From Mobula hypostoma (taxonomy: Eukaryota): a DNA stretch of 64,000 nt. Both the position numbers and the translations under genes were made by a program. Under the pieces are notes generated by a model. That model was not told the origin of the DNA. It saw only the letters and a list, made by a program, of their open reading frames with translations, and searched no databases. Of this stretch, positions 100 to 63,748 are shown piece by piece. Numbering within the stretch: position 1 is the stretch's first letter; every line of letters starts with the position of its first letter. Location of the stretch: NCBI RefSeq assembly GCF_963921235.1, contig NC_086097.1:138696001-138760000 (forward strand), read 5' to 3'.

Positions 100-1350
100 G
101 GTGGGGTGGACGGGGTGCGGAGCGAAGTGGCTGCTTTATCCTGGATCGCGCGAAGTTTCCAGAGAGTTGTTGAGGGCGAGTGGCGGGTTTACCAAATGAA
201 GCCCCTACATTGGCGATTCTCGCAAATCTAACTTATTTCTGTCCTCAGTTCCAACCTTGAGCGCAATTTATCAAAATTAATGCACGCAGCTTTGGGCCCG
301 AATGATTTAATTGCATCTGCACCCGGTGGCGTTATTGTCGCGTGTCGGCGAGGAGCGGGCGTGGGATGTGGGACGGTCGGAGCCTGCGGACCAGAGTAAG
401 ACTGTGGAGCGAGCTGATGTGAGACGGGAGCACAGCACCCCCTGTTAGTCCTCAAACCTTTTTGCACCTTGCATTGAAAAGCTGTGGTTTCCTTTCTCTC
501 CCCCCACCCTGATCAGCAAGTACCACAGCTCCCAGCGTCATCCGAGGAGCCGCTACAAGAGGCAGGGCCGGGACAGACGCTGTCCAGAGGTACCAAGCAC
601 ATCTCCATGCGCCGATGTTGCACTGATCCTCGCCGCTCTGGTCCGGATCCCGGGCTGACTGTTCAAACTCCTCCCGAGATCGCACGAAGCCTTGGTGTCC
701 CCGACCCCGTGGAGACGGGGCAGGATTTAAGGCGGGGGTTGAGTGCTCTGGGAGCGGCTCCGTGCGATCGGTTGTCTGGGCGCCGGCTCGCCCCATCCAG
801 GATGTCGCGGCTGGAAGGTGCCTGAAACCGGAATTATTCGGTGCGTCTACAAAGGGGGGTGGGGGCTGCAGGGAGAGCGGCCGGAGCCCAGGACACCCCC
901 CAGTTGTTGTCAGATTAATCCGGACACCGCTGGGTGCGGGGGAGCGGAGCGCAGAGTGAGCAAGAGGTCCGGCGGCACGGTCCGATCCCACCGCACGGCC
1001 CCGGAGCACAGATGCATTTTCGACTCTTTTCTCTGGCCCTGCTTCTTGTGAACTGCATGGATTATGGGCACGGCCTAAGGCAGCGAGGCAAGCGGAGCAG
1101 GAGAGGTCAGTGTCGGCGGCGGGACCCCCCGACCCATTCCGCAAACTTCCACCGGGCGCGCTGCAGTTTTACGCGGAGAGCTGATCCTGGGGCGCAGCGC
1201 GATGTGTCTGCGCGCTGAGGGGTTGCCCTGTCCCGGCCGTTGGCCCGGGTCATCAACCGGTCCCCAGTCCAACAGAGAGGAGGTAGAAGTTCCATCGTAT
1301 CCCACCCTCTCCGTGGCCGCTGCGGCTCCTGTCCCGGGCACGGCGGTGAG
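100..1350. promoter_or_regulatory. CpG island over the promoter/first coding exon of the R-spondin gene
   Basis: High GC and many intact CpGs versus the CpG-depleted remainder; overlaps the start codon at 1012. TSS not identifiable. Confidence 0.75.
1012..1105 (+). CDS. RSPO2: R-spondin-2(-like) coding exon 1: signal peptide and basic furin-type site
   Basis: ATG at 1012 gives MHFRLFSLALLLVNCMDYGHGLRQRGKRSRR, resembling the RSPO2 N-terminus (MQFRLFSFALIILNCMDY, from recall). 94 nt, then a G|gtcagt donor, phase 1. Confidence 0.92.
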
Positions 1351-11395: not shown

Positions 11396-11495
11396 GTCCT
11401 GATGAAGGGTCTCAGCCCAAAGCATCAACTGTTTACTCTGTTCCATAGATGCTGCCTGGCCTGCTGAGTTCCTCCGGCAATTTTGTGTGTGTTGC
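11396..11495 (+). mobile_element. Penelope-like element terminal segment with degenerate hammerhead motif, inserted in a minus-strand DeuSINE
   Basis: gtc-CTGATGA-agggtctcagccc-aaag-catc-aactg followed by gatgctgcctggcctgctgagttcctcc...tgtgtgtgttgc, the same terminus as at 52392-52493. Confidence 0.75.
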
Positions 11496-18559: not shown

Positions 18560-21500
18560 GAAGTCCATGCTCAGTGGTGAGCTCTCTTTAGACGTTTAGT
18601 AGATATTGTTGTGTACGAACTCTGACTTAATTCGGATTCTCCCAGTCTTTAAAAATAGTGGGTCTGGATCATATGACATTAATAAAATGAGACACCGGGG
18701 TCATTTCCAGTGGGGTATAATTGAACCTTGGCCAGACCATATTTGGAGCACATCTGGAAAAAATATTGAAGGATTGGAGAAAATGCGAAGCATAAAGGAT
18801 GCTTCCGGATCTACTTGGATAAATGCATGGCTAATCCATTTCTGGATTACTGGCATTGTCTCTGGAGCGGGTGGGACTTTTTCCAGCTGGCCAGTTAGAA
18901 CTTGACCAATTAGCTAGAGTGTGTCCAATATTCTGCAGGGTGGTTTCCTGGTGCTATTGGACAGGGTTTGATCTAATCTGACAGGGGTATGGAACAAAGA
19001 GTAAGTTGGTGGGGTGGTCCAGTTAAATACAGAAGGAAAATTAAATTATTCCAGTAGGCTAAACAGGTATGGGCATAATACCACATGTGGCAGGAATTAC
19101 AAATATTTTAAGTGAAAGGTCTGCTGAGCATATCAAATGAATTGAAAGCATTGATCAGCACTTGGCGATCTGATATCATTGCTGGGACAAGAGTCAGTTG
19201 AAGAAAGGGCAGGGCTGGAAACTCCATATTCCAAGTCTAGAATCTTCAGGTGAGGTGGAGGTGGATATAAAAGAGGAAGGGGCATTGCAATATTGACTAA
19301 GGAGAAGTTATTGATGGAGGATATACCAGAAGGCTCTTCAAATAAGGACATGCGGATAGGACAAAGAGATACAAAGGTGTGAGCAGCTTGCTGGGTCTGT
19401 ATGCTATCTTCCCTATAGACAGCAGGGGTTGGATGAACAGATATGTAGCAAACTGCTGAGGGGTAATGAGTAACAACATTGTCCCCGTCGAGGTCTTCAA
19501 CGCTCCTGATTTTAACTGGGATCACGGTGTGAAAGGGCAATAGGGACTGGAATTTTTGAAATGGGATTTTCAAAACAAATCATGTTAAGAGAGTAATAGT
19601 CATTGAAAAGGGAAGAATCATTTGATATCAAGTATGGATAAATCTTCAGGGCCTGGTGAGGTATATTCTAGATTGTTATGGAAGGAAAGAGAGGAAACAA
19701 GTGTTTAAGCAATTCACAAAAAATGTTAGCGGTACTCAGCAAGTCAGGCAGCATCTATGGAGAGAAATAAATAGTTGATGTTTTGGGCCAAAACTCTTCA
19801 TCAAGACTGGAAAGAAAGTGGGCAGAAGTCATAATAAGAAGGTGGGGGGGGGGGTGATGAGGTGAGGGAAAGACTACAAGTTGGCAAGTGATAGGTGAAA
19901 CCAGGTGGGGTAGCAGGAATGAAGTAAGAAGCTGGGAGGTGATAGGTGGAAGAAGTAAAGGGCTGGAGAAGAAGGAATCTGATGGGAGAGGACAGTGGAC
20001 CGTGGGAGAAAGGGACAGAAGGGGGAAAAAGGAGGGGGTGAAGGGTAGGTGAGTAGAAGAGAAGAGATGAGAGTATAAACAGAATGGGGAATGAAAAAAG
20101 AGAGTAGGGGAAGGGAGAGAAATTACTGGAGAAATCAATGTTCATGCCACCCTCTCCTTAGATGCTGCTTAATTTGCTGAATTCCTCCAGAATTTTGTGT
20201 GTGTTGCTTATGATTTGATGCATCCGCAAATCTCTTGAGGTTACGGCAGATTTTTAAATCCTTTCTGGACGTGGGTGGAAGTGCCCATTAACTGGAGCAT
20301 AGCAAATGCGATCATTTTATTCAAGAAGGGCAGCAAGAGAAGCTGATTACATATCAGCGAGTCTAATGTCAGTTGTAGGAAAGATACAGAACAATTCTAT
20401 GGGACAGGGTTGATCTCCACTTCGAAAGGCAAAGATCGATCAAGGAGGACGTGGTTAGGTAGAGATCTTGAAGAGGTAATAGTGTTAAGGGCAGTGCAGT
20501 TGGTACAGTCTACATGAAGGTTTTTTTAAAAACTGCTTCTTGGATAGGAAACTGATCAGAAGGGATCCAGGATAAGCTGGAAAATCAAACCCAACATTGG
20601 TTTAGTTGGAAGCTGATGGTTGACAGCTTCTGATTGTGGAGTGCAAGATTGTGTGCAGCACTAATAGAAACTTTCTCCTGAGCAGACATGTCCAAGGCCA
20701 GAGGGAACAGGAATAAATTGAGGAGTCAGTAGCTTGAAGAATACCTGATGATTGAAGCCTAGAACTTACTGCCTGCGTAGATGGTGGAGGCAGAGACTTG
20801 GAGAGCATTTAACAAGACCAGCTCTTGTATCGCCAAGGCAGGGAGAACTCTGGACCAAGTGAAATGAGGTTAACATCGATGGGTGCTTGATGGTACCAAG
20901 GACATGGTAGACAGAAAGGGCTGTCTCTGTGTAGTTTGGTGCTTTGAACAAAGAACATTACAGCACAATACTGGCCCTTTGGTCCATGATGATTCTATGA
21001 GATCCCGTGAGTGTGGGAAACTCACATTGAGTGTTGAAGGGAGTGAGAGTCAGTTCCTTTGATTCAGCGAAGTAGAAGCCAGTGAGTTTTAAAAGGAGAG
21101 CATCAATGCTTGGTGGTTTAAAGGGAGCGGTGAAGGGGACGATGGGCGCTGGGCAGACTTGGATTAGTTACAAGAAATGGGCGTCAGAGTGCCGTGAGTT
21201 CACGAGCAGGACCCAGCAGCTGGTAAACGGAGTGGGAAACAACGTTTTAAAAGGAGCTGGAACAGCAAAGTCCTGTGATATTAAAAACACCTCTAGGTTA
21301 ACACAATCCCAATGGGTTTAAAGTGAGCAACATCCAGACAGCAGGAAAGAGAATGTGGGGGCTTTAAGGGGTCCAGGGCGATTAAAGGATTGAGGAACAA
21401 GAGTTCCAGTGAGTTTAAACTATTAATCTGTGATTACAGAGCAACACAGAAGCCACTAAGTTTAAAGGGAGTTGGGACCGGAACTTGGCCAGTTTAAAGA

Positions 21501-22639: not shown

Positions 22640-24570
22640 TAGGCTCTGGAAATCTGAACAAGAGACAATGTTTAGTCAGGTCGTAGCTATGGAAGGAGGA
22701 GCAGTTAATGTTTGAGGTAAAAAAAAAAGAACCTTTATCGGAAGTTGGAAAGAGACATAGTTTTAAATTGGAGAGAAGATGGGGGTGGGATGGATGGGGT
22801 AAAGGAAATAACCATGATCAGGTAAATCAAGGCTGTCAAAAGGATGAGTGATTAATGGGCTAGTTAGTGGGTGATGGAGAAGTCTGATGTGCTGAAAGTG
22901 CAGGCTAATAGAAATATCTGTAGTAAGGTGGGACCAGGATCACCTTGGAGATGAAGCAGTTAGAGGCCGATAAAGAAGTGTGGTTGTGTCAATTGTAGAT
23001 CACTAAGTTTATGTTAGTGGAGAGGAGGAAACAGAAACAATAAAAACAAAGTTCTGAGCCATTAAGACAGAAATAGGCAATCCTGATCTAGACAGAGAAG
23101 GTGAGTTATCAGAAGTTAAAGAATTTGATACTGAGTCTACAAGGTGGCAACGTGCACAGACGGAAGGTGATATGCTGTTCCTCTAGCTTGTGTTGCATCT
23201 TGCTATGACAATTACATGGCCAGAGACAGACCAGATCAGATCAGAGTAGGAGTGGAATGGAGAATTGAAGCTGCAGCAACAAAACTCAGAATCACTTACT
23301 TTGATCCCACAAAACGGTACTCTGTCTGTGCTTGAGTTCTCTGTTTTTGAGAACAAAGAGAACAGTTATGGAACTGGCTGGTGAACACGAATTGCTTTAC
23401 CTTCCACCCCACCAGCCTCTGCATTTAATGGACCATTCATCACCATTTCCATCAGCTCCAAGATTCTACCAGCGGACACATTATACTCCCCCCTTCGCTG
23501 TCAGCATTTTGAAGGTGCTGTTCCTTTCACGAGTCCCTGGTTTGATCTTCATCCTCACCAACCTCTCTCACTATATGGCACTTTCCCATGCAGGAGGTGC
23601 AACACCTCTCCTTCCTTCCGCCGTCCACGTGAAGTAGTCTCTGCAGGTGAAACAGAGACTGATGTACACTGCTGCTTGTTCTGTCTGCTGCATTTGCAGC
23701 TCGTGCTACAATATCTGCTATACTAAAAAAATGAGACACAGACTGGGGGATCACTTTGTGGTGCTGCTGTATTCAGTAGGTAGGCAAGGGAAATCCTGAG
23801 CTTCCTGATGCCTGTAACTTTAATACCCAATCCTACTTCCGGCCTAACTTCTCTGATTGTCCCCTCTTGTACTGTAATCATGAGCCCTAACAGGCTTATG
23901 GGACAGCATTCCATCTTCACTCTGGGTACACTGCAGCTTTCCAGAATCAAAGTTTACTCAGTTTCACTGCCTGTATAAGATAGAGTCATAGTGGTTTTAG
24001 CCATCATCTGTAATTTATCCACACTGCAATCCAGGCCTCGCCCTGTCAGTTCTTCCCTTTGTGTTACTCTTACCATCCTCAATTTATCTATAAGATAAGA
24101 TAAGATTAGCTTTATTTGCCACATGTACATCTGGGTGCCACAGTACCATAGCGTGTAGCATCATGTTTAACAGCAGCAGTGATTGGAAGACTGGGATTCA
24201 ATTCCTGCCATTGTCTGTAAGAAGTTTGCACGTTCTCCTGTGATCACATGGGTTCTCCAGTTCCTTCTACATTCCAAAAGACGGAAAAGTTAGGGTTAGT
24301 AAGTTGCGGGTGCTGGAAGCATGGCGACAGTTGTGGACTGCGTCAGCACCTCCCGGACTGTGTTGGTAACCGATGCAAATGGCACATATCACTGTATGTT
24401 TCGGTGTTTCAATGTACATGTGACAAAGTTAACCTTCCAGGCACCATAAAATAACTTTTCATCTCTTTCCCAGTTCTGACGAAGGGTCTTTAGCCTGAAA
24501 TGCTAACTTTGTTTTTCTCCCTGCAGATCAGCTAGATGCTTCCAGGAATTTCCATTTTTGTTTCCGATCC
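22640..24570. mobile_element. Old Penelope-like fragments in opposite orientations (minus about 22640-23330; plus about 23400-24570, interrupted by a SINE)
   Basis: Degenerate GIY-YIG-coding sequence similar to 54900-55230; terminal hammerhead-like motif at 24471-24509. Confidence 0.65.
24090..24436 (+). mobile_element. tRNA-derived V-SINE
   Basis: tRNA-like head with B-box-like gggattcaattcc, then V-domain tgtaagaagtttgcacgttctcctgtgatcacatgggtt. A related copy lies at about 41250-41525. Confidence 0.7.
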
Positions 24571-27127
24571 AGAAAGTGTATTTAAAAAAAATACCTTCAG
24601 ACATTAAATGGAATGTGGAAACAGAATCTGGAAAGGTTTAACAGGGCTCACTGAATGTAAAGGTTGCAGCATACAGAATTTGGTGAGATTAAAGGAAATC
24701 TGAAACAGAATGTAGTAATTATGGAAAAAAATGAAGATGCATTGAGAAAGTGAGTTTTAAGTGTGCAAGAAAGAGAATTCAGTAACCTAAAGTAATCCAG
24801 TAAATGGAAGAGTATGAATTTAAAAGGGAGTGGGAAACAAAGCCCTCTAAGGGAGCACTTGAATCAGAGTTTTGAGAGAGGCTGCAAAGTGATTCATCAA
24901 AATGATTCCAGGGAAGAGGGTCTTTAGACTGGAGAAGCTCAAGTTTCATTTCAGAACAGGGGATGTGAGGGAAGATTTTGAAATCAGGAAGGGTACAGGG
25001 TAGATAGAGAGAAACTGTTTTTCTTGGTTGGCAGGTCAGCAAGCGGGAGATGAAGAATGAAGATGATTGGCAAAAGCACCCAGTGACAAAATTTTTCAGA
25101 TAGTGAGCCTTTGGCACCTGGAGAAGCAGTGGAGGCAGATTCAATTGCAGTGTTCAGAAGAGAGCTGTATACGTAAGTGAAAAGAAGAATTTGCAGTGTG
25201 TTGGGACAGGACTATCATGTTTATACAAAGTACTTGTCAATAGTGGGCTGAATGGCCTGGAGTAAATGCTCTGTAATTCTGTGGTAAAATTCAAAGGAGT
25301 TTGCCAGCACCTGGTCCGAAGTAGTTTGAGATTTTTTTTTTTTGCAGAGACCTGAGGTTGTTGCAATCACTGAGTCCTGTTCTAAAACACGAACTGTAAT
25401 CCTAATTCTTTAATCCTAAAATTCCCATTGCTTCTGCGTAACCTTACAAAGCAAAGATATGAACATCCCCAAGTATGTGCTTGGACTAAAGTGAAGAACT
25501 GGAAGGAGAAACAGACTTAAAATACCATTGGGGAAGAATACTATGCTTGCTGTGTTTAATGAGAACATTGCCTGCCAAGCCAGTGAATAAACTGCCTGAA
25601 TTGTGATGGATTTTGAAATAAATCTGGTTCTTAGTAAAACTCAAAAGGTGGAATCTGAAATAATATAAAGAAATATTGGAAATGCTCAGCAGGACAGCAG
25701 AGAGGCCTCAGGCCTGAAATGTTGACTGTTACTCTCCTCAGAGATGCTGCCTGATCCACTGAGTGTTTCCAGCAAAGTCTGCCATCTCACTCCTCAGCAC
25801 TGTCAGATCCTGATGTGGGCAGGAAGAATCGCCCCAGAGTGCCCCTGGAGTAGAGCCAGGGATGATACTGTGAGACTTCTGTTAGAAACCTGCTGGACAG
25901 ACCTTCTGCACTCATCTCCCGTGGAGTTTGTTTGGGGCTGGGGGATAAGATGTGATGTGGAGCAGGGTGGGGCAGAAGGATGTTAGGGGTGCCGAATGCA
26001 GTTTTTTCAGAACGTGAAACATAGAATGCTAAAGCACAACCATGCCCTTTAGCCAACAATGTTGTGTTGACATTTTCACGTACTCCAAGTTCAATCTAAC
26101 CCTACCCTCCCGCACAGCTCTCCATTTCTCTTTAATCCATGTGCCTATCTAAGAGTCTGTTAAGTGTCTCTAATGTATCTGCCTCTACCCTTACCTCTGG
26201 CAGTGTGTTCCATGTACTTACAACACTGTGTGAAATCTTGATCTCTGACATCCCTCCTATACTTTTCCCCAATCACCTCTTGCATCAGCCATTGCCACCC
26301 TGGGAGAAAGGCCTGGTTGTTCACTCAATTTTTGACCCTTATCATCTTATACACCTCTATCAAGTTGCCTCTCAACCTCTGCTCCAAAGGGAAAAATCTA
26401 AACCAGCCTGCTGAACCATTCCTGGTGTCTCTACTCTTTATCCTTTCTAAAGCGTCCACATTGTTCCGAAAATGAGGCTACCAGATCTGAACATGATATT
26501 CCGAGTGTGCTCTAACCAGAGTTTTATAGAGCTGCATCAGTATCTCGTGGCTCTTGGACTCTGTCCCACAACTAATGAAGAACAATACACCATACACCTT
26601 CTTAACCAACCTATCAGCTTACGCAACAACTTTGAGGGATCTGCAGTCGTGGACCCCAAGGCCCATCTGATCCTGCACAGTGCAAGATTAACCCATTAAC
26701 CCTGTACTTGCCTTCAAGTTTGACCTTCCAAGGTGTATCCCTTCATGGGACATAGCCCCAGAAAAGAGAGGCGTTCTTTTAGAATGGTGATACGGAGGAT
26801 TTCTTTCGCCAGAGATTGGGTGAATCTGTGCAATTCGTTGCCACGGGCAGCTGTGGAGGCCAATTCTTTATGTATATTTAAGGCAGGGGTTTATAGATTC
26901 TTGATTGGTCAGGGCATGAAGGGAGCAGGGAGAAGGCTGGAGATTGGTGCTGAGGAAAAAATTGGATCAGCCATGATGAAATGGTGCAGCACACTTGATG
27001 GGCTGAATGGCCCAAATCTGCTCCTATGTCTTATGGTCTTATAGTCTCATGGTCTGTTCTGGTTGGAACACCATCTGCCACTTCTCAGCCCATTTCTGCA
27101 TCCTATCAATGTCCCGTTGTAACCTAT

Positions 27128-31789: not shown

Positions 31790-31990
31790 TAATGGAAACA
31801 TACCAGACTGCAGATGCTGGAACATGCAGCAAAAACCAAACTGCTTAGTGGGCCGGGCAACACCTGAGGAGGGAAATGGGCAATGAACATCTGGATCAGA
31901 TAAAGGTTCTTGACCAGAAATGTTATCTGTCCATTTCCCTCCACCGATGCAGCCCGACCAGCTGAGTTCTCCATTATTTTGTTCCTTTGC
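31790..31990. mobile_element. Short fold-back Penelope-derived element
   Basis: ggagggaaatgggca is inverted as tgtccatttccctcc around a decayed hammerhead-like core. Confidence 0.6.
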
Positions 31991-40828: not shown

Positions 40829-40953
40829 AACACACAAAGTGCTGGAGGAACTCAGTGGGGCACACAGAAACTTTAACTGTCCATCTCCCTCCATAGACGC
40901 TGTCTGACCCGCTGAGTTTCTCCAGATTTCTGGCATCTGCAGTCTCCCGTGTC
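40829..40953. mobile_element. 125-bp fold-back Penelope-derived insertion with 13-bp TSD
   Basis: TCCCTTACCAAGC at 40816-40828 and 40954-40966; internal inverted repeat ctggaggaactcagtggg / cccgctgagtttctccag. Confidence 0.75.
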
Positions 40954-49125: not shown

Positions 49126-49314
49126 CAAACGCAGGACTGTACCCAATCTGTAAGGGCTGTCTCCTTTGTTCGAAGGATAATGGATGCCTTAGCTGCCAGC
49201 AGAAGCTGTTCTTTTACCTCCGACGACAGGGAATGCGTCAGTTTGGTGAATGCCTCCACTCCTGCCCCTCGGGGTACTATGGTCTGCGGGCGCCTGAGAT
49301 GAACAGATGTGCAA
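49126..49314 (+). CDS. RSPO2: R-spondin-2(-like) coding exon 2: furin-like domain FU1
   Basis: tctgcag| acceptor and A|gtaggt donor, 189 nt. Encodes ANAGLYPICKGCLLCSKDNGCLSCQQKLFFYLRRQGMRQFGECLHSCPSGYYGLRAPEMNRCA; ZNRF3/RNF43-contact residues R65, M68 and Q70 are present. Confidence 0.96.
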
Positions 49315-49959
49315 GTAGGTCTCACATTATTGTATTTGCTTTGCTCTGCTTATGCTTTGCTTGCACCTGCAGGCACAACCTCTTTTCACACTAAGCCCAG
49401 GCAAGGATTTGGTTTCACATTTAAGAAGCAAATCTCCAGAGTGCTCACTAGGCTGGGCAGCGGTGATGAAGAGAGGAACCTCTCTCAGCTTCACTTGATC
49501 ATTTGTATTGCAGCTCCAGCCTACTTTTACTTTGTAAAGTTTCCGGGATCAGAGTGTCCCCTGGCCAGCCCATGGGTAATGGCCCAGTCTGAAGCTGTCA
49601 CAATGTTTAGGCTGTGGCTGTCTCTGAAAGTAGCTATCTACTTACCGGTTTATTTTGGTTTGATGGTTTGGGGAATACATCTTGTTCGAATGAGCAGTGC
49701 ATACATGCCTCTTGCTCTGATTTACACTGGTGTGTGATGTGGTTTCAAAGCCTACATTTCTCTCGACACGGTTTAAATGTTAGAAATGAGTGCTGAATGT
49801 GTTTTCATTTTTTGCCGTCAAAATACTCCTCTGGTTGGTTTTCAAACCTTGGAGGCATTCTCCCTTTTCTGTGTTTCCCTGGCATTTCCTTTAATTATTG
49901 CTGGTCTCCCAGGTGGTAACTGGGCTGGGGGTGAGGGTGGGTGGAGAAGTGATGCCCAG

Positions 49960-51570
49960 CTGGGGTTGGGAGTAGAGGGGTGATGTTGGTGGGATTGGGG
50001 ATGGAGATAGCAGAGTGATGTTTGCTGGGGTTGGGGGTAGAGGGGTGATGTTGGTGGGATTGGGGATGGAGATAGAAGGGTAGTGTTTGCTGGGGTTGGG
50101 GGTAGAGGGGTGTTGTTGGTGGGATTGGGGATGGAGATAGATGGGTGGTGTTTGCTGGGGTTGGGGGTAGAGTGGTGATGTTGGTGGGATTGGGGATGGA
50201 GCTGGATGGGTGGTGTTTGCTGGAGTTGGGGTAGAGGGGTGATATTGGTGGGATTGGGGATGGAGATAGCAGAGTGATGTTTGCTGGGGTTGGGATAGAG
50301 GGGTGATGTTGGTGGGATTGGGGATGGAGATAGCAGAGTGATGTTTGCTGGGGTCGGTGGTAGAGGGGTGATGTTGGTGGGATTGGAGATGGAGATAGAA
50401 GGGTGGTGTTTGCTGGGGTTGGGGGTAGAGGGGTGATGTTGGTGGGATTGGGGATGGAGATAGATGGGTGGTGTTTGCTGGGTTTGGGGGTAGAGTGGTG
50501 ATGTTGGTGGGATTGGGGATGGAGATAGATGGGTGGTGTTTGCTGGGGTTGGGGGTAGAGGGGTGATGTTGGTGGGATTGGGGATGGAGATAGATGGGTG
50601 ATGTTTGCTGGGGTTGGGGGTAGAGGGGTGATGTTGATGGGATTGGAGATGGAGATAGATGGGTGGTGTTTGCTGGGTTTGGGGGTAGAGGGGTGATGTT
50701 GGTGGGATTGGGGATGGAGATAGATGGGTGGTGTTTGCTGGGGTTGGGGGTAGAGTGGTGATATGGGAGGGATTGGGGATGGAGATAGATGGGTGGTGTT
50801 TGCTGGGTTTGGGGGTAGAGGGGTGATGTTGGTGGGATTGGGGATGGAGATAGATGGGTGGTGTTTGCTGGGGTTGGGGGTAGAGTGGTGATATGGGAGG
50901 GATTGGGGATGGAGATAGATGGGTGGTGTTTGCTGGGTTTGGGGGTAGAGGGGTGATGTTGGTGGGATTGGGGATGGAGATAGATGGGTGGTGTTTGCTG
51001 GGGTTGGGGGTAGAGTGGTGATATGGGAGGGATTGGGGATGGAGATAGATGAGTGGTGTTTGCTGGGTTTGGGGGTAGAGGGGTGATGTTGGTGGGATTG
51101 GGGATGGAGATAGATGGGTGGTGTTTGCTGGGGTTGGGGGTAGAGTGGTGATATGGGAGGGATTGGGGATGGAGATAGATGAGTGGTGTTTGCTGGGTTT
51201 GGGGGTAGAGGGGTGATGTTGGTGGGATTGGGGATGGAGATAGATGGGTGGTGTTTGCTGGGGTTGGGGGTAGAGTGGTGATATGGGAGGGATTGGGGAT
51301 GGAGATAGATGAGTGGTGTTTGCTGGGTTTGGGGGTAGAGGGGTGATGTTGGTGGGATTGGGGATGGAGATAGATGGGTGGTGTTTGCTGGGGTTGGGGG
51401 TAGAGGGGTGATGTTGGTGGGATTGGGGATGGAGATAGAAGGGTGGTGTTTGCTGGGTTTGGGGGTAGAGTGGTGATGTTGGTGGGATTGGGGATGGAGA
51501 TAGATGGGTGGTGTTTGCTGGGGTTGGGGGTAGAGGGGTGATGTTGGTGGGATTAGGGATGGAGATAAGT
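49960..51570. repeat. G-rich 65-bp minisatellite, about 25 copies, with degraded flanks to about 51870
   Basis: Unit gggtgatgttggtgggattggggatggagatagatgggtggtgtttgctggggttgggggtagag; period 65 (50821, 50886, 50951). Confidence 0.95.
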
Positions 51571-52089
51571 GATGTTTGATGGTGTTGGGCATAGAGGGGT
51601 GATGGGAGGGGGTGGAGATGGAAGTAGAAGGTGATATTTGGTGGGTTTGGGGGTAGAGTGGTGATGGGAGAGGGTGTGGATAAAGATAGAAGAGTGATAT
51701 TTGGTGGGTTTGGGGGTAGAGTGGTGATGGGAGAGTGTGTGGATGGAGAGAGGGTGATGTTCAGTGAGGATGGGGCAGAGTGATGATTGGAGGGAGTTCA
51801 GATGGAGATAGAAGGGTGATGTTGAATGAGGGTAAGGGTGCGGATGGAAATAGGATGGGTGGGGTAGAGGAGAGATGCTCCATTTGTAAGTTTGTTCAGG
51901 TCTTGTGGCTTTGTAAATCCAGACAACCCACACACACCAGTTCTAAGAGAATGGAGAACAGGAGCAGAGTTGACCATTCAACGAACAAGGGCAATGAACT
52001 CCCTAGTACTGGTAGCCTAGTTGTAGTCTCAGACTTTTGATGGTAAGGTATTACCACTTAGACCAGGAATTATATCATGAACTCTGTTA

Positions 52090-52493
52090 TCCTTATGTTC
52101 AATCCGGGTAGCCTCCAACCTGATGGCATGAATATCGATTTCTCCTTCTGGTAAAAGAAAATTCCTTCCCCATCCCCATTTCTTCTATTCCCTACTCTGT
52201 GTCTTACCTCTTCATCCCTGCCTAACTGCTCCTCTGGGTCCCCTCCACCTATGGTTCACTCTCCTCTCCAATCAGATCCCTTCCTGTTCAGTCCTTTCTC
52301 TTTCCTACTCAGCTGACTTCACCTATCACATTCCCGCTATCCTCCTTCCCCTCCCCCACCTTTTTATTCTGGCATCTTCCCCCTTCCTTCTCAGTCCTGA
52401 AGAAGGGTTGTGGCCTGAAGCGTTGACGGTTTATTCACTTCCATAGATGTTGCCTGACCTGCCAAGTTCATCCACCATTTTGTGTGTGTTGCT
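52090..52493 (+). mobile_element. Penelope-like 3' fragment with near-intact hammerhead motif
   Basis: gggtagcctccaacctgatggcatgaatatcgatttc (GSLQPDGMNIDF, end of the GIY-YIG ORF, continuing the 54943-55230 sequence), pyrimidine tract, hammerhead-like motif at 52392-52429, conserved terminus. Confidence 0.85.
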
Positions 52494-54451
52494 TTTACCC
52501 TGGGTGGTTTTAGTAGAAGTTAGAGGTCAATGATGGCACTTTTGGTTTGCTGACTCTGACTGAAGATCTGTTGCACATCATTACGAAACCCCTGCCACCA
52601 ACAGCATTGCAGCCATGTTCCTGCCAATGGTCAGCAACACGTAAAGGCCCATGGTGAGTCCATCTTCCCTCTCCAAACAGAACATTGATAGAGTCTTCTT
52701 ATTCACGACCGCATAAAAGTTGACAAGCAGCTTTTATTTCCAAAGCAGGTTAATTTTGGAACAAATCTGGAAGGTAATCTGAGAAGTATTTCTTCAAAAC
52801 TGTACTTGGCTGTTTTAAACCCCCAATGAGTTTTCTCATTGAGTTCCTCACCGTCACTCATGGAGGCGCTCCCAGCCTTGAGGGTTCGGCCAAGGCCAGC
52901 AGATGCGACGGATGTGCTCAGGCAGCCAACGGGGTGAGCTAACCAATGAGTGACGCGCAACTTGATTTCTAATTCTTTCCCAGCTCATGAGAGAGCAAAC
53001 CTGACAGGGAGCAGAAATGGTCATTGCGTTGAAGTGGCTGCATTTACTTCCATGGTCCAAAATGCCAACAGCTTGGAAACAAACCAGGAAAGTGGTCTGA
53101 GCCAGTGCTCACACCTGGCCCTCACCCTGACCCCCTTACCCCCCCTTCAATCAGATATGGTTCCCCCAGAACCCCTGATTCACTGCTTTGGTCTCTCAGA
53201 ATGATAGTGCCTTCCACAGACTTTGTTTCACTCATTCAGTACTTCTTCGTAATTCAAAATATTTTCATTCTATCATTTATGCGAATTTATACTATTAGTC
53301 ATCTTTTTTTATATAATGCAGCTGTCAATACCTTCCTTGCCATCTCTAAGCTTGAGTAGAGAGCATCTGCAGGAAATGCCATCCGCTCCAGCCAGGGTGG
53401 TGTAGTGAAGATGTTGCTGAGTGTTTGTCAGAGGGAAGCTCTCTGATCACTGAGAGACGCACAGCTGGTTTGCAGCTGGCCTTGGGCTTTATGGGACCAG
53501 AGAGTCTGGCTGTCAGGTGTGCCTGTGGCGTACCAATGTTAGTGATAGAGCATAAATGTCCAGCTTACTGGTGACATCTTCATCCTGAGAAATGAGCTGC
53601 TGGGAGTCAATCATCTGGAACATGAGTTATTAAAATGGGAAGCCCGGAGGATATGAGGATGGAGGCTGTCAACTAACCATCTGGCTGAGCCATAGCCAAC
53701 ACGTTGCCTGTTTCCTGGAAGCAGACTCTGACCTTTTAACAAGAACACCATCAAAGGGACTAATCACACTATTCCCGATATCAGGGTGGCCCAAAGTGCC
53801 TTACGCCTGTGGTTGGAAAGGTGGTCCCCGTTGCAGGGAAGGTAGCACCGTCAACATGTGCATGGTAGGATCCCACAAACAGCAGGATGAAAGTGAACAG
53901 ATGTAGGTGCGTTAATCAAGAGATTGATGTTGGGTGGCAATGACAGGGGACAAACAAGGGCTCAGAGACACAGAGGAAGACACTTCTGAAGCCAAAGCCC
54001 TCTTCATTACTTGTAAGCAGGGATTACATGTAAAATTCCTGGAGAGAATTTGAAGGGGAAGAGCTAGTTCTTCCTTCGTTTTTTAACAGAATGTAGATGT
54101 CCCTGGCAAGACTATCACTTATTGCCCATCTGTAACTGCCCTTGAGAAGGTGGTGATGAGTGGCCTTCTTGAATAACTGCAGTCCTCCTTGTAAGGATCT
54201 CCCACAGAGCTTTTGGGGATGGAATTCCAGGATTTAGACCCTGTGACTATGAAGGACCAGTGATATGTTTCCAAGTTAGGATAGTGTAGGAGATGGAAGG
54301 GAAGCCACAGATGGTGCTCCTGTGTTCCTCTTACTGGTAGAGATCCTGGGTTTCAGCTGTTGGAATAGCTTGGGTAGGGTGACTGAGTGTATTTTGTAGA
54401 TTGTAACCCTGCACCTACTGGGCATTGATAATAGTGGGAATGAATGTTAAT

Positions 54452-54720
54452 AGACAATACACAATAGGTGCAGGAGTAGGTCATTTGGCCCTTCGAGCCA
54501 GCACCGCCATTCACTGTGATCATGGCTGATCATCCACAATCAGTATCCAGTTCCTGCCTTAGAAACATAGAAACATAGAAAATAGGTGCAGGAGTAGGCC
54601 ATTCAGCCCTTCGAGCCTGCACCGCCATTCAGTATGATCATGGCTGATCATCCAACTCAGAACCCTGTACCTGCCTTCTCTCCATACCCCCGATCCCTTT
54701 AGCCACAAGGGCCATATCTA
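54452..54720 (-). mobile_element. Two stacked short CR1 3' ends
   Basis: Both match the 3' UTR of the young CR1 (aataggtgcaggagtaggccattc); the second has an (ATAGAAAC)n tail. Confidence 0.85.
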
Positions 54721-54721
54721 C

Positions 54722-55232
54722 CCAGATATGTGTGGCCACTGGGAGATCCCGCCTCCTCTGGCAGACAGAGCACAGGCGCCCAGCGAAACAGTCTCCTAGC
54801 CTGCGTCCCCCACCATGCACCCCCCCCATCCCTTCCCACCGATCTCCCTCTCAGCACTTAGCCTCGTAAGCAGAGCAAGTGCTACACATGCCCTTACACT
54901 TCCTCCCTTACCACCATTCAGGGCCCCAGGCGGTCCTTCCAGGTGAGGCGACACTTCACCTGTGAGTCAGCTGGGGTGATATACTGTGTCCGGCGCTCCC
55001 AATGTGGCCTTCTATACATTGGCGAGACCCGACGCAGCCTGGGAGATCGTTTCGCTGAACACCTACGCTCTGTCCGCCAGAGGAAGCAGGATCTCTCAGT
55101 GGCCACACATTTTAATTCCACATCCCATTCCCATTCTGATATATCTATCCACAGCCTCCTGTACTGTCAAGATGAAGCCACACTCAGGTTGGAGGAACAA
55201 CGCCTTATATTCCATCTGGGTAGCCTCCAACC
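54722..55232 (+). mobile_element. Penelope-like element GIY-YIG endonuclease fragment with inverted 5' piece
   Basis: ORF 54943-55251: FTCESAGVIYCVRRSQCGLLYIGETRRSLGDRFAEH...VATHFN...EEQRLIFHLGSLQP. 54727-54807 is an imperfect reverse complement of 55031-55110. Confidence 0.9.
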
Positions 55233-56234
55233 TCATCCCCATAATCTTTGATTCCGCTATCTTTATGAGCTCTATCCATCTCTTTCTTGAAAGCATCCAG
55301 AGACTTGGCCTCCACTGCCTTCTGGGGCAGAGCATTCCACATATCCACCACTCTCTGGGTGAAAAAGTTTTTCCTCAACTCCGTTTGGGGTGCTTGACGA
55401 GCCATCAAAGTGGGTTACTTTGTCCTGGGTGGTACTGAACATCTTGAAACGTGTCGAGGACGCTCCATCTCATTCTGGGATCACATGTGTTAAGTGTGCA
55501 ATGCATTCACACTCTGATGCCAGCATCTGGGTCAGTGGACTTTGGGGCAAATGGAGTTCAGTGCATGTGCGAAGGCATTTTTAGGAGTCGCTGTGGCGGA
55601 TGGATGCCACCATCACCATGTTGGAAGCCCTCGTCATTAATAAAACACCCAGCTCAGCTGATAGTTCCTTTGAGGGCGGCTTCTACCTAGTGAATATTTC
55701 AAGGTTTTGGCGTTTCTCTCATTAATATGATTGTGGAGGTCACTATCGTAGAGCAGGTACAGACAAATAAACAGCAGCCAAATGATGAGTGCAGTGATGG
55801 AAGAGAGTGGATCTGTCAATCTGGAGATACTGTAACTCCTGTCACTAGGTACTGTTCTCCAAGTAGGATTTCTCTTCCTCTGATTAACTCCCCTCACCCT
55901 TTACTGTAAACTCCCTGGTGTCAGTGATCATGGGATTCACTAGAGGGGGGGGGGTGTAAAGAAAGGGAATGAGGACTCTGAGAGGAAGCTGGAATTCAAT
56001 GGGAACCAGACGACTGTGTATGTCACGCCTTTGCCAATACCCCTGCAGATGCTCACTGTATGTGGGGCACTGTAGCAGAACGAGAAGCTACTCGTCAGCA
56101 GAACGGCGGGATGGAGCGACACAGATCAGTGAGTGCTCTTGAGCTGATGCTGTGAGCACACACAAGTGGAGGTGATGGAGCCTGAGGTGCTGATTCACTG
56201 CTGAAAGGCGGTGAGGAGAGCTGGACAAAGATTA

Positions 56235-58815
56235 TCAGAGTCATACAGCACAGAAACAGGCCCTTTAGTTCTATTACCTGCATTTTGCCCCTATCCTTCT
56301 AAACCTTTGCAATCCGTATACACATGGTGAGCCTTTTAAGTGTTGTTAATGTACCTGCCCCAACCACTCATTCCATATATGCACCACCCTCCGAAAAAAT
56401 TGCCCCTCAGGTTCCTATTAAATCTCTCCTCTCTCTCATCTTATGCAATGGCAAGCATTTAAAGGTTGCATGGATGAACTACAACAATTGTTCATCCCAG
56501 TTTGGCAAAAGAATAAATCAAGGAAGGTAGTGCACCCGTGGCTGACAAGAGAAATTAGGGATAGTATCAATTCCAAAGAAGTAGCATACAAATTAGCCAG
56601 AGAAAGTGGCTCACCTGAGGACTGGGAGAAATTCAGAGTTCAGCAGAGGAGGACAAAGGGCTTAATTAGGAAGGGGAAAAAAGATTATGAGAGAAAACTG
56701 GCGGGGAACATAAAAACAGACTGTAAAAGCTTTTATAGATATGTAAAAAGGAAAAGACTGGTAAAGACAAATGTAGGTCCCCTGCAGACAGAAACAGGTG
56801 AATTGATTATGGGGAGCAAGGACATGGCAGACCAATTGACTAATTACTTTGGTTCTGTCTTCACTAAGGAGGACATAAATAATCTTCCAGAAATAGTAAG
56901 GGACAGAGGGTCCAGTGAGATGGAGGAACTGAGTGAAATACATGTTAGTAGGGAAGTGGTGTTAAGTAAATTGAAGGGATTGAAGGCAGATAAATCCCCA
57001 GGGCCAGATGGTCTGCATCCCAGAGTGCTTAAGGAAGTAGCCCAAGAAATAGTGGATGCATTAGTGATAATTTTTCAAAACTCGTTAGATTCTGGACTGG
57101 TTCCTGAGGATTGGAGGGTGGCTAATGTAACCCCACTTTTTAAAAAAGGAGGGAGAGAGAAACCGGGGAATTATAGACCGGTTAGCCTAACGTCGGTGGT
57201 GGGGAAACTGCTGGAGTCAGTTATCAAGGATGTGATAACAGCACATTTGGAAAGCGGTGAAATGATCGGACAAAGTCAGCATGGATTTGTGAAAGGAAAA
57301 TCATGTCTGACGAACCTCATAGAATTTTTTGAGGATGTAACTAGTAGAGTGGATAGGGGAGAACCAGTGGATGTGGTATATTTGGATTTTCAAAAGGCTT
57401 TTGACAAGGTCCCACACAGGAGATTAGTGTGCAAACTTAAAGCACACGGTATTGGGGGTAAGGTATTGGTGTGGGTGGAGAATTGGTTAGCAGACAGGAA
57501 GCAAAGAGTGGGAATAAACGGGACCTTTTCAGAATGGCAGGCGGTGACTAGTGGGGTACCGCAAGGCTCAGTGCTGGGACCCCAGTTGTTTACAATATAT
57601 ATTAATGACTTGGATGAGGGAATTAAATGCAGCATCTCCAAGTTTGCGGATGACACGATGCTGGGTGGCAGTGTTAGCAGTGAGGAGGATGCTAAGAGGA
57701 TGCAGGGTGACTTGGATAGGTTGGGTGAGTGGGCAAACTCATGGCAGATGCAATTTAATGTGGATAAATGTGAAGTTATCCACTTTGGTGGCAAAAATAG
57801 GAAAACAGATTATTATCTGAATGGTGGCCGATTAGGAAAAGGGGAGGTGCAACGAGACCTGGGTGTCATTATACACCAGTCATTGAAAGTGGGCATGCAG
57901 GTACAGCAGGCGGTGAAAAAGGCAAATGGTATGCTGGCATTTATAGCGAGAGGATTTGAGTACAGGAGCAGGGAGGTACTACTGCAGTTGTACAAGGCCT
58001 TGGTGAGACCACACCTGGAGTATTGTGTGCAGTTTTGGTCCCCTAATCTGAGGAAAGACATCTTTGCCATAGAGGGAGTACAAAGAAGGTTCACCAGATT
58101 GATTCCTGGGATGGCAGGACTTTCATATGAAGAAAGACTGGATGAACTGGGCTTGTACTCGTTGGAATTTAGGAGATTGAGGGGGGATCTGATTGAAACG
58201 TATAAGATCCTAAAGGGATTGGACAGGCTGGATGCAGGAAGATTGTTCCCGATGTTGGGGAAGTCCAGAACGAGGGGTCACAGTTTGAGGATAGAGGGGA
58301 AGCCTTTTAGGACCGAGCTTAGGAAAAACTTCTTCACACAGAGAGTGGTGAATCTGTGGAATTCTCTGCCACAGGAAACTGTTGAGGCCAGTTCATTGGC
58401 TATGTTTAAGAGGGAGTTAGATATGGCCCTTGTGGCTACAGGGGTCAGGGGGTATGGAGGGAAGGCTGGGGCGGGGTTCTGAGTTGGATGATCAGCCATG
58501 ATCATAATAAATGGCGGTGCAGGCTCGAAGGGCCGAATGGCCTACTCCTGCACCTATTTTCTATGTTTCTATGTTTCTATCTTAAACCTATGCCCTTGAG
58601 TTCTTGATTCCCCACCCCGGGAGAAAGACTGTGCACATTGATCCATGGTGATCTTATACAATTTCATAAGATCATCTTCACTTCACTGAGTAAAGTTCTA
58701 GCCTGCTCAACCATTCTCCCTAAATTAGTCCCTCGAGTCCTGGCAACTTTCTCATAAACCTTTGCTGCATCGTTCCAGCTTAAACACCCAACAGCAGGGT
58801 GACCAAAACTGAATG
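56235..58815 (-). mobile_element. Old CR1 3' region hosting the young + strand CR1
   Basis: Reads through as ctctctcatctta|aacctatgccc when the insert is removed. Confidence 0.65.
56444..58578 (+). mobile_element. Young 5'-truncated CR1 LINE with open RT reading frame
   Basis: ORF 56443-58482 (679 aa) with RT motifs including FADD; 3' hairpin and (TTTCTATG)n tail; 6-bp TSD ATCTTA at 56438-56443 and 58579-58584. Confidence 0.97.
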
Positions 58816-60077
58816 AGAGGGCATGGCACTGAATCTGGGCTGGATAGATGAGATGCAGGAATAGATCCTCCTAGTTCTGAACACTTCTTGAAGGTGGAGG
58901 AGTTGAGAATCAGGGCTCACAAACTGGGAAATGAGGTTGGCCATTTGGGTTTCCAATGAGGAGGGAGTTCTTCATCCTGAGAGTGATGAGCTGGTATTCA
59001 CAGAAGGCAGTGAGGCTAAATCTGCAATAGTGCTTCTTGACATAAAGAGTTCAAGGGGTGTGGGGAGAAATGAGCAACAGGTTAGTGAGTTTGGACAGCT
59101 TCGATCATGTTGACGATGGTGTAGATCAAAAGTGATGAACGGCCTACTGTTGCTCCTTATTTCATTGCTTCTATATTTCTCTACAGCATCTGCTCTCAGT
59201 TAAATAGAACTATCTGATGCTGGTGAGGCCCGCCCTGTCACCGTACCGTGTTTGGGTCTTGGGAAAGTGTGTTTGATTTATGTGCTAACCGCTCACCCGT
59301 CATCCTGTGCACCCTTGCTGTCTGGTGTTTAAACTTCCATCCCTACACCACCCCTCCCCCATGGTCTCATTCTTCTGTCTCTCCCCTCTGCGAATCCTGA
59401 CATCATCTAATACTGGCCTGTCAGTCCTCCCCTGGCTTTAATCTCGTCTGTGCCTAGAGCTCTGGAATTCTCTCCCTGTACCCCTCCACATTTCTCTCTT
59501 CTCTTGAGATGCCCCTTGAGCCTGTCTTCTGCCCATGCATCACTACCTCCCAAAGTGAATCGGTTTGGTCTGATAACTGCATCTCAGAATGATTTACAAT
59601 ATTAAATGCAGACTCGTCTTGAACAGGCAAATTGGGGCTGCTATTTTAATCAAATAAAGCCCATCCTCTTGTACTCTCTTACTGAAATGCTGTGGTGCCA
59701 AAAATTGTAGTCCTGACTAGGAGTGTATTTAATATGATGTAGCAGCATGGTTGCAAGTGCTGTACTAAATGGGTCAGTTATAATGAAAGTTGTATGGGAA
59801 ACAATTTACTACAGCTGCTTTCCATTTCAGTACCTGGTGATACCTTCTCACTCTCGCTGTCTGTCTCTTTCTCTCTATCTATCTATCTCTACATATTTAT
59901 CTCTATCTATCTATTCCTCTCTCTCTCTCTCTAATTCTGTCTTTCCCTCTATCTCTGTCTCTCATACACATTCTTTTTCTTGCAAGAAAGCTTATGTGAT
60001 TGCATTGTTCCAGTTAGGTTAGCAGACTTACACCCACTTCCCTGCTAACAGTAGTTTTGTTTTAATTTCTCTCCTAG

Positions 60078-60221
60078 GATGCAAAATAGATAATTGTGAC
60101 ACATGTTTCAGCAAAGACTTTTGTACAAAGTGCAAAGCTGGTTCATACTTGCACAAGGGGCGTTGCTTTGAAGAATGCCCTGAAGCATATGTACCATTGC
60201 AAGAGCACATGGAATGTGTGG
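60078..60221 (+). CDS. RSPO2: R-spondin-2(-like) coding exon 3: furin-like domain FU2
   Basis: ctcctag| acceptor and G|gtaagt donor, 144 nt. Encodes [51 protein letters not shown]4/5/6-binding F105 and F109 are present. Not listed in the ORF track. Confidence 0.96.
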
Positions 60222-61625: not shown

Positions 61626-61814
61626 AGGGCTGTGAGGTTGGACCGTGGAGCAACTGGGGAACTTGTATAAAGAATGACAAAACATGCGGCTACAAGTGGG
61701 GGCTGGAAACCAGGAGACGGCAGATCGTGAAGAAGCCAGCAAGGGACACCATTCCCTGTCCAACCATCGCAGAATCCAGGAGATGTAAAATGGAAAAGCG
61801 GCACTGTCCAGGAG
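61626..61814 (+). CDS. RSPO2: R-spondin-2(-like) coding exon 4: thrombospondin type 1 domain
   Basis: tcttcag| acceptor and G|gtaagg donor, 189 nt. Encodes EGCEVGPWSNWGTCIKNDKTCGYKWGLETRRRQIVKKPARDTIPCPTIAESRRCKMEKRHCPG with the WxxWxxC motif. Confidence 0.96.
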
Positions 61815-62159
61815 GTAAGGGAGTCGTTGAGTGGGTCTTTCATCTGAACTGTTGACTGTTGCTCTATTCCAGTATGTTATCTGCCCTCCAGAATTTCTGA
61901 CTTTATTTCAGATTTGCTCAGCTGCAAGTTTTTGATGTTCACTCTCTCAGAGTGCTCCCTGTTATTGTGTTGCCCTTTCAATATTGCCGTGGTGTGTATG
62001 GGGCCAGGGAGCCTACCTTGATATTCAGTGGATACAGGAGATATATTTGAGTGCAGAACATGCTTAGCTGTGAGCACTCTCCATGGGCTGCTGCAGAACC
62101 CTGCACTGTGGTTAACTCCTGGTGGAGCTCCACCTTTCTCCAAGGGCAAGCAACTCACT

Positions 62160-62780
62160 GATTGTCCCCGTCCGAGGTGTGACTGGTGGACAGTGCTGTA
62201 TGTGGATTGTCCATGCCCGAGGTGTGACTGGTGGACAGTGCTGTATGTGGACTGTCCACACCTGAGGTAGGTACATTTGGGTAGGTATGTGGATTGTCCA
62301 TGCCCGAGGTGTGACTGGAGGACAATGGTGTATGTGGATTGTCCATGCCCGAGGTGTGTCTGGTGGACAGTGCTGTATGTGGATTGTCCACGCCCGAGGT
62401 GTGCCTGGTGGACAGTGCTGTATGTGGATTGTCCATGCCCGAGGTGTGACTGGTGGACAGTGCTGTATGTGGATTGTCCATGCCCGAGGTGTGACTGGTG
62501 GACAGTGCTGTATGTGGACTGTCCACGCCTGAGGTAGGTACATTTGGGTAGGTATGTGGATTGTCCATGCCCGAGGTGTGACTGGAGGACAATGGTGTAT
62601 GTGGATTGTCCACGCCCGAGGTGTGTCTGGTGGACAGTGCTGTATGTGGACTGTCCACCCCTGAGGTAGGTACATTTGGGTAGGTATGTGGATTGTCCAT
62701 GCCCGAGGTGTGCCTGGTGGACAGTGCTGTATGTGGATTGTCCATGCCCGAGGTGTGCCTGGTGGACAGTGCTGTATGTG
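62160..62780. repeat. Composite minisatellite of 45-bp units with three 42-bp variant units
   Basis: 45-mer gtggattgtccatgcccgaggtgtgactggtggacagtgctgtat; 42-mer gtggactgtccacacctgaggtaggtacatttgggtaggtat. Confidence 0.95.
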
Positions 62781-63748
62781 CACTATGCAGCTGTGGTGGT
62801 TTGCAGTTTTTATTTCACTGCCTCCTTTCACTCTTCTGTTTGCTTCTCTTTCTTTTTCTTTGCCACTTTCTGCCTTCTGCATTCTCCCCTCTCTGGTTGT
62901 TGTATCTCCTCTTTCTTCTCTCTCTTTCTTTCTCTCACCTTCACTCTCTCTGTGCTCCTTTCTCCTCCTCCCTCTCCCTATGTCTCTCTTTCCTCTCACT
63001 CTATATTTCTCCCTCTCCCCTTCCTGTTCCTTCTCTCCTCCTTTCTCTCTCTTTCCCACGTCCTCCTGTCTTTAACACCCCCATCTCTTTCTGCTGCTCA
63101 GTTTAGTGGTGTCTATCACCAATTGTTACTCATTCTCTGCAAGGATATGAGAAAAGACAGAAGCAATGATACAGTAGTTCTGTAAATCTCAACACTGTGG
63201 TGCTGTTAGCCTTGGTATCTCTGTCCTGGCTGATGGTCAGCACTTTGTGAGTTAACTGCTCAGGGTTGGACATTGCTAAAGTTTTGGTTTTTCTACAGGA
63301 AATCTGTAACATCAAACCTGGGCGTGGCTGCAAGATCATCAAGGGGATTGCTTGGGGAGATTTTAGTTTCCCTGAGAGAAGGCATACCTGACCAGGAAGA
63401 ATAGAATTTAAATCTGGTGACAATACAAGGCTGAAGTGATGAAACATCAGACTGGCCGTGGTATTGTTGAACAGTGGGGCTCTGTTCCCAATCTGGACTC
63501 TGAGAACCACTAGGTCTTGGCACTTTGACCATCCCAGATTGGCCATGGTGGGAGGTGGTGAAATTTCAGTGATTTGGAGTGTTGAACCAGTAGAATGAGC
63601 TGTTAAACCTGGCAGCTCTCTGACTTTGTCCCCATTTGCCCCATGTCCTTGTTTCTCTTTCATTCCCTCTTTGTCTTCCAGTGTGATATCCAGCGTTATA
63701 GTTGGTGAGCAGTGTACAGTGAGAGTATTGTGCTTGGTCATTGTACGT

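Follow-up and report, generated by a model that had tools for sequence, protein, structure and literature searches.

The RSPO2 locus

The window analysed here is a stretch of 64,000 nucleotides of the Mobula hypostoma genome (contig NC_086097.1, positions 138,696,001 to 138,760,000 of the forward strand), and it contains exons of RSPO2 together with a series of decayed ends of a Penelope-like element (PLE) in the RSPO2 introns (Table 1). Five exons splice into a 243-residue frame, and the exons of the gene continue beyond the window. The best solved-structure matches of exon 49126-49314 were to R-spondin-2, with 112 bits compared to 65 bits for R-spondin-1. Intron 2 spans 1106-49125 (48 kb) and intron 3 spans 49315-60077, the latter containing the hammerhead remnant on which this work is centred (the focal copy, 52392). 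It follows from the positions and strand of the exons that copies 11396, 24471, 25705, 31896 and 40865 lie sense in intron 2, copy 19772 lies antisense in the same intron and the focal copy lies sense in intron 3. The host gene and strand implied by an initial annotation made from the letters of the window (hereafter the sequence-only reading), which had placed several copies sense to the RSPO2 pre-mRNA, were thus confirmed from the exons.

The gene EIF3E lies on the plus strand just upstream of RSPO2 and spans approximately 200 kb (G000:C1:138459765 to about 138660400), and the genome contains four R-spondin loci. Two long open LINE-type RT frames, which we take to be CR1-like, were found in opposite orientation at 27362-29479 (minus strand) and 56422-58479 (plus strand). 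Their translations are nearly identical, and as they sit in introns 2 and 3, flanking the exon at 49126-49314, they could base-pair in the pre-mRNA. We also noted broken Pif1-type helicase frames at 34455-35206 on the plus strand (Pfam Pif1_2B, E 2.3e-13), which were likely left by a Helitron and have a CpG-rich patch (33751) next to them; two long minisatellite arrays, seen as long low-complexity frames, at 49845-51800 and 61880-63180 in introns 3 and 5; and a 312-codon frame on the minus strand at 16625-17560, the end of which is presumably an RNase H-like stretch of LTR-retrotransposon type.

Table 1. RSPO2 exons and PLE remnants in the window.
Feature	Position	Strand	Description
RSPO2 first coding exon	1012..1105	+	signal peptide, phase-1 donor; within CpG island
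PLE stub, 100 bp	11396..11495	+	catalytic half dead (G12>A, A15.1>G); AUC triplet kept
Antisense PLE end	19708..20157	-	GIY-YIG tail to 3' end; hammerhead 19772-19809 dead (C3>U, G12>A)
Inverted 5'-truncated partner of antisense copy	20151..20243	+	without hammerhead
Older-subfamily stub	24464..24544	+	stem I pair 2.1-1.1 is U-A; U16.1>C inactivates its own cut site
Half copy	25699..25774	+	stem II 3' part, GAAA, GUU triplet, stem I 3' strand; without 5' core
Decayed sense remnant	31896..31982	+	core broken
Head-to-head stub pair	40830..40932	.	plus-strand half (40865-40932) retains GAAA onward only
RSPO2 furin-like exon	49126..49314	+	solved-structure match
5'-truncated PLE end holding focal motif	52091..52494	+	GIY-YIG last codons, then 3' UTR, hammerhead and 3' end
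Focal minimal hammerhead remnant	52392..52429	+	A15.1>G (52420), H17 = U, one stem I mismatch
RSPO2 second furin-like exon	60078..60221	+
RSPO2 thrombospondin exon	61626..61814	+

Hammerhead remnants in the window

A profile built from 37 genomic relatives gave nine matches in the window: the five stretches quoted by the sequence-only reading, all of which read as quoted when the sequence was inspected again, two additional sense remnants at 31896-31982 and 40865-40932 that it had not listed, and two pieces lacking the motif. Each of the quoted copies is damaged (Table 1), and no copy in the window is complete. A further PLE fragment at 54728-55236, 90% identical to the young element described below, encodes part of the GIY-YIG domain, carries a small inverted 5' piece and stops before the hammerhead.

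The focal motif lies in a fragment of 400 bp in which the GIY-YIG frame ends at approximately 52154 and is followed by a pyrimidine-rich 3' UTR; the fragment is 79% identical to the L002 locus (408 columns) and 85% identical to the young element over 52091-52144. In hammerhead numbering, the 5' strand of stem I occupies 52392-52396, C3 to A9 occupy 52397-52403 and are followed by an extra A at 52404, the 4 bp stem II spans 52405-52416 and G12 to A14 lie at 52417-52419. Position 15.1 is G at 52420, where the family has A, and is followed by CG, U16.1 (52423), U17 (52424) and the 3' strand of stem I (52425-52429, mismatched at 52428), placing the would-be cut site at 52424/52425. Owing to the G at 52420, the focal copy lacks the A15.1-U16.1 pair and intact core of an active hammerhead, and under the criteria set out in PMC3088659 copies in which this pair is broken in such a way are rejected. 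Changes at C3, G12 and A15.1 were reported to reduce hammerhead activity more than 100-fold (PMC4075628), which rules out copies 52392, 11396 and 19772 as catalysts. Among the sense copies in RSPO2, 24471 alone retains an intact catalytic half.

Searches for a target duplication revealed an 11-bp duplication with one mismatch around the stub at 11396 (would-be cut site 11426/11427) and candidates of 9-10 bp at 24464 and 25699 that may be due to chance, and none for the focal copy or for the unit at 19707-20209.

The family motif

We examined a sample of 1,134,000 bases, comprising the 334-kb RSPO2 region and eight 100-kb blocks taken at round coordinates. The profile gave 212 matches in this sample and none in a reversed control, while a structure descriptor found 23 intact motifs, none of them in the window, and none in each of five shuffles. 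Genome-wide, an exact 34-nt pattern of the intact motif matched 45,476 times and its control did not match, in agreement with the suggestion that the family is abundant. The bare core pattern was barely above chance in the window, with 12 matches compared to a shuffle mean of 6.65, a count reached in 4 of 100 shuffles. No Rfam hammerhead model gave a hit, with E values of up to 10 admitted, to either the window or the intact elements L082 and L086, a silence that is expected of a minimal form without stem III.

The majority sequence of the 212 matches has the full core (C3 U4 G5 A6 N7 G8 A9, G12 A13 A14 A15.1, U16.1 H17), as had been predicted from the damaged copies. Type I topology was evident in a hand-picked set of 18 sequences, in which 83% and 96% of cells were paired in stems I and II, respectively, compared to 17-43% overall in slid controls. 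The unpaired base between positions 9 and 10.1 is A in 146 of 154 matches, and of 125 matches, 59 have GC and 43 have GU at the 10.1-11.1 pair. The stem II register of agg with cct that was originally drawn requires U at position 11.1; the main stem II instead begins with G10.1-C11.1 after an unpaired A that follows A9. We considered U at 11.1 as mere local CpG decay and dropped the idea, as U is the majority base in young-type copies (20/29). Stem III is reduced, as had been proposed, to a palindromic word without loop 3: positions 15.2-16.2 are CG in 52 of 125 matches, and the forms expected from CpG decay are CA (29) and TG (28). Judged on its sequence, the family motif is the minimal hammerhead of PLEs by every testable feature, and the classification as a minimal type I hammerhead holds for the family in core, topology, stem II and palindrome.

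Covariation in the stems stood less firmly. The pair 2.1-1.1 is C-G in the main family and U-A in the older subfamily of 24471, all 29 best relatives of which carry U at 2.1 and, with one exception, A at 1.1; these relatives were chosen by their likeness to 24471 (30 of 40 listed matches were fetched, one of them 24471 itself). In the hand-picked set of 18 this was the only stem pair changed on both sides, and the overall covariation score was reached by 66 of 500 shuffles; half of the switch is a CpG-type transition. The paired change noticed in the sequence-only reading is this switch between subfamilies, at one pair and with an overall score inside the shuffle range.

The carrier element

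The neighbour of one match (L016) led to a young family in which all 150 scored genomic GIY-YIG matches were 98-100% identical. Of 12 young loci extended upstream, three (L082, L086 and L088) consist of a long frame between two pseudo-LTRs (pLTRs) in direct orientation, with an intact motif in both pLTRs at a spacing of 3,513, 3,479 and 3,517 nt, respectively, and four (L084, L088, L090 and L092) have a near-identical inverted copy upstream. [quoted passage not shown] The C-x4-C-x2-C linker before GIY-YIG (L016) matches the Neptune definition CX2-5CxxC, and on this linker, which is shared with Nematis, we tentatively assign the element to the Neptune type. Approximately 3.4% of the sampled bases align to the element. 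Together with the GIY-YIG tail into which the focal copy runs, the RT and GIY-YIG frame and the motif in both pLTRs support the Penelope-like origin that the sequence-only reading had proposed for the motif.

A C/CT tract between RT and GIY-YIG varies in length (16, 17 or 18 nt in L051-L092) and shifts the frame, and at least 150 near-identical copies match the frameshifted form. A programmed frameshift was considered and dropped, because the query had selected for the shifted form and five of eight copies in unselected blocks are in frame.

We asked whether the stubs might form a non-autonomous family of their own, similar to retrozymes or SINEs, with amplification driven by the ribozyme that they carry. 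Many copies are only approximately 100 bp long, the stub at 11396 has its own target duplication, and a preprint traces the origin of animal retrozymes to PLE ends (10.64898/2026.07.22.740005). Head-to-head pairs of stubs are also frequent, with 33 pair listings among the 212 matches, in which one copy appears twice, and the junction often falls inside the motif or shortly ahead of it. Against this, the 5' ends of the matches are spread across the whole profile and grade into the GIY-YIG frame, and truncated and inverted ends are a pattern already described for PLEs (PMC8557442). The window contains no tandem arrays of stubs, its copies being single or head-to-head and none of them complete, and hence none of the tandem arrays of at least two units with complete motifs that characterise non-LTR retrozymes. 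We regard a separate family as very unlikely.

State and decay of the copies

The core is complete in 36 of the 125 matches that span the motif, and 22 of these also keep the stems. Of the 115 copies that also reach the 3' flank, 29 are of the young type, 19 of them with a complete core, and 86 are of the old type, 13 of them complete. None of the 18 matches in the RSPO2 gene has a complete core. At non-CpG sites, the core of the 115 copies agreed with the majority at 831 of 902 positions (92.1%), compared to 2,194 of 2,411 (91.0%) in the flank (p=0.33); in old-type copies only, the corresponding values were 608/670 (90.7%) and 1,574/1,774 (88.7%), slightly higher in the core and not significant (p=0.16). 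The core set excluded A6, G8 and G12, as subfamily or CpG sites, and the flank set excluded subfamily or CpG columns. Positions G12, 15.2, 16.2, 17 and 1.1 sit in CpGs, and their agreement with the majority is limited to 59-66% of copies. Across RSPO2 and the part of EIF3E that was analysed, 19 matches are sense and 18 antisense, a count based on only 37 matches of which few are intact.

A hypothetical split hammerhead in RSPO2 intron 2

The sequence-only reading had suggested that sense copies in RSPO2 might complement each other in cis. In the double hammerhead described in PMC4209133, one copy contributes the 5' strand of stem I, the core, stem II and GAAA, and the other contributes the cut triplet and the 3' strand of stem I. 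One such pair can be drawn on paper. With 24471 as catalytic half and the AUC site of 11396, helix III has 4/4 and helix I 5/5 matches, amounting to nine Watson-Crick pairs between two copies that lie 13 kb apart and are both sense in the same 48-kb intron. The suggestion stands for this pair and falls for the focal copy, which has no working catalytic half; as catalytic partner it is ruled out by A15.1>G. The other candidates, in which 25705, 31896, 40865 or 52392 would be cut by 24471, were rejected for mismatches and poorer folds (+0.9 to +8.7 kcal/mol without flanks and +8 kcal/mol or more with flanks).

Could 24471 then act as the catalyst that cuts 11396 after AUC at 11426, with an effect on RSPO2 output or splicing? 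Among 152 sampled cut-site halves, no more than 2 were as good a fit to 24471 as 11396, and when six old copies were drawn at random (20,000 draws) such a pair arose in 4.6% of draws; a minimally compatible pair arose in 38%, and with hundreds of thousands of stubs in the genome compatible split pairs must be common. Two of the changes that match between 24471 and 11396 may be opposite-strand outcomes of CpG decay, and the match is likely to be chance, partly explained by this mirror decay. The computed active fold of the pair lies at -1.7 to +0.3 kcal/mol relative to free monomers (1 M), the best of six pairs tried. This is better than the intact young pair, for which the active fold was computed at +8 to +10 kcal/mol and a non-catalytic fold is preferred, so that by comparison the energy model gives no ground for dismissing 24471 x 11396. 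Against the pair stand its length of only nine base pairs and the cost of a 13-kb tether, approximately +10 kcal/mol by a rough extrapolation.

Published activities are low. Minimal hammerhead monomers did not cleave and their dimers and trimers cleaved weakly (PMC4209133), a review gives very low rates for cleavage as dimers (PMC6765202), and the motif of an anole PLE cleaved only with the element's protein (PMC11167929). The statement that PLE hammerheads cleave as dimers is thus supported by published reports, with the provisos that the activity is low and that one motif needed the PLE protein. Moreover, a hammerhead cut within an intron is reported to have left splicing intact, unlike that of a fast HDV ribozyme (PMC2995048, citing primary work). 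The tether cost, the low published activity and the tolerance of intronic hammerhead cuts together make a host effect unlikely, and the comparison of core and flank carries no signal of selection. We consider it extremely improbable that RSPO2 is affected by this pair. On paper, such a split pair is predicted to be uncommon in any one gene; across this genome it must arise many times, and cellular conditions would not favour it. The same low credence is given to the wider scenario, in which the separately dead stubs 24471 and 11396, members of different subfamilies, rebuild a hammerhead that cuts intron 2 in the course of transcription, and the approximately 45,000 motifs that are intact, along with several hundred thousand that are half-intact, would amount to a source of intronic cuts across the genome wherever the element's protein is available. 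If true, cleavage by a split pair in vivo would mean that dead repeats can jointly rebuild a ribozyme within a developmental gene.

Role of the motif in the element

The motif is very probably a minimal type I hammerhead in the pLTR of an abundant EN+ PLE, and the RSPO2 copies truncated, decayed stubs of it that are most likely inert. As published work on such motifs suggests, the four-base palindrome in place of stem III would hold two copies together while they exchange stem I strands, and the catalytic half of each would cut its partner after GUC, releasing unit-length RNA in a reaction that is likely to be slow and protein-assisted. Reverse transcription, to go by the 3' ends and the 5' truncations, would start approximately 70-100 nt downstream of the motif and usually stop early, scattering short hammerhead-bearing ends over the genome. 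Once inserted, the stubs decay at the background rate, as the core and flank values show, and CpG sites are lost first; the pair 24471 x 11396, which works on paper, is most likely a by-product of this decay.

The motif might instead be a hammerhead-shaped element for protein binding or folding of the PLE RNA, with cleavage mattering little for transposition even when the element is young. In the green anole, catalytic mutants left insertion in vitro unchanged, the motif being dispensable for this step, and no RNA-seq reads begin or end at the site, although the same motif did cleave in the presence of protein (PMC11167929). Naiad PLEs are described as thriving without canonical motifs (PMC8557442). 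In the present family, the cut site lies upstream of the genomic 3' ends and downstream of the point at which 5' pLTRs begin. Fourteen matches in the sampled blocks carry C at A6, mostly with one common 3' end type (e.g. G000:C1 near window-relative 106041 and 106765), and a natural A6C hammerhead was reported to be slow (PMC3088659); this slow-core variant thus appears to have been amplified and spread. The intact pair, as noted above, is computed to prefer a non-catalytic fold: the core of the intact young motif (L082:3594-3631 and 7107-7144) pairs with the palindrome, approximately 8-10 kcal/mol below the active dimer, which would fit a need for a protein chaperone. Set against these observations, a full core and a compensated stem I pair are present in the majority sequence of either subfamily, young or old, suggesting that the fold is under selection in master elements. 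We think it unlikely, though a serious possibility, that cleavage matters so little. The alternative concerns the cycle of the element, and the verdict on the RSPO2 copies is unchanged by it.

The young, near-identical full-length elements are well suited to testing the role of the motif in transposition, and a count of sense and antisense copies in introns among the 45,476 exact matches would directly test for a cost to the host.

Comparison with known systems

Intronic host ribozymes such as CPEB3 and the amniote hammerheads HH9/HH10 are single, conserved sequences with activity in the monomer. The RSPO2 copies resemble them in being ribozyme-like sequences sense to a host intron, and differ from them in being repetitive, broken in the core and subject to decay at the background rate.

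The closest known system is the minimal hammerhead in the pLTRs of metazoan PLEs (Cervera and de la Pena 2014, PMC4209133), reported from Xena, Poseidon and Neptune of fish, from coelacanth and from Xenopus. Common to both are the full core, the unpaired base after A9, the G10.1-C11.1 pair, the short stem I, the palindromic 15.2-16.2 without loop 3, the presence of one motif per pLTR approximately 3 kb apart and the scattering of most motifs as single truncated copies. Unlike the Schistosoma motif, with its stem II of 7-8 bp (PMC4209133), the motif described here has a stem II of 4 bp and U at 11.1 in 20/29 young-type copies. The main-text parts and supplements of PMC4209133 that were searched name no shark or ray, and a search of the literature on shark and elasmobranch PLE ribozymes, with partial coverage of subscription papers and supplements, found nothing on the motif.

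The carrier shares with Neptune-type EN+ PLEs (Craig et al. 2021, PMC8557442) the RT, the CX2-5CxxC linker and the C-terminal GIY-YIG domain, as well as pLTRs in partial tandem, inverted 5'-truncated neighbours and a hammerhead near the 3' end. PAc, the green anole's Poseidon element (Frangieh et al. 2024, PMC11167929), is likewise a vertebrate EN+ PLE with a hammerhead in its pLTR and 3' ends downstream of the cut site; it belongs to another clade, and its ORF starts inside the motif, in contrast to the downstream first Met found here. Compared to the approximately 4,000 motifs of coelacanth and 9,000 of Xenopus (PMC4209133), the 45,476 exact copies extend the known PLE minimal hammerhead to a further lineage, in which its copy number is unusually high.
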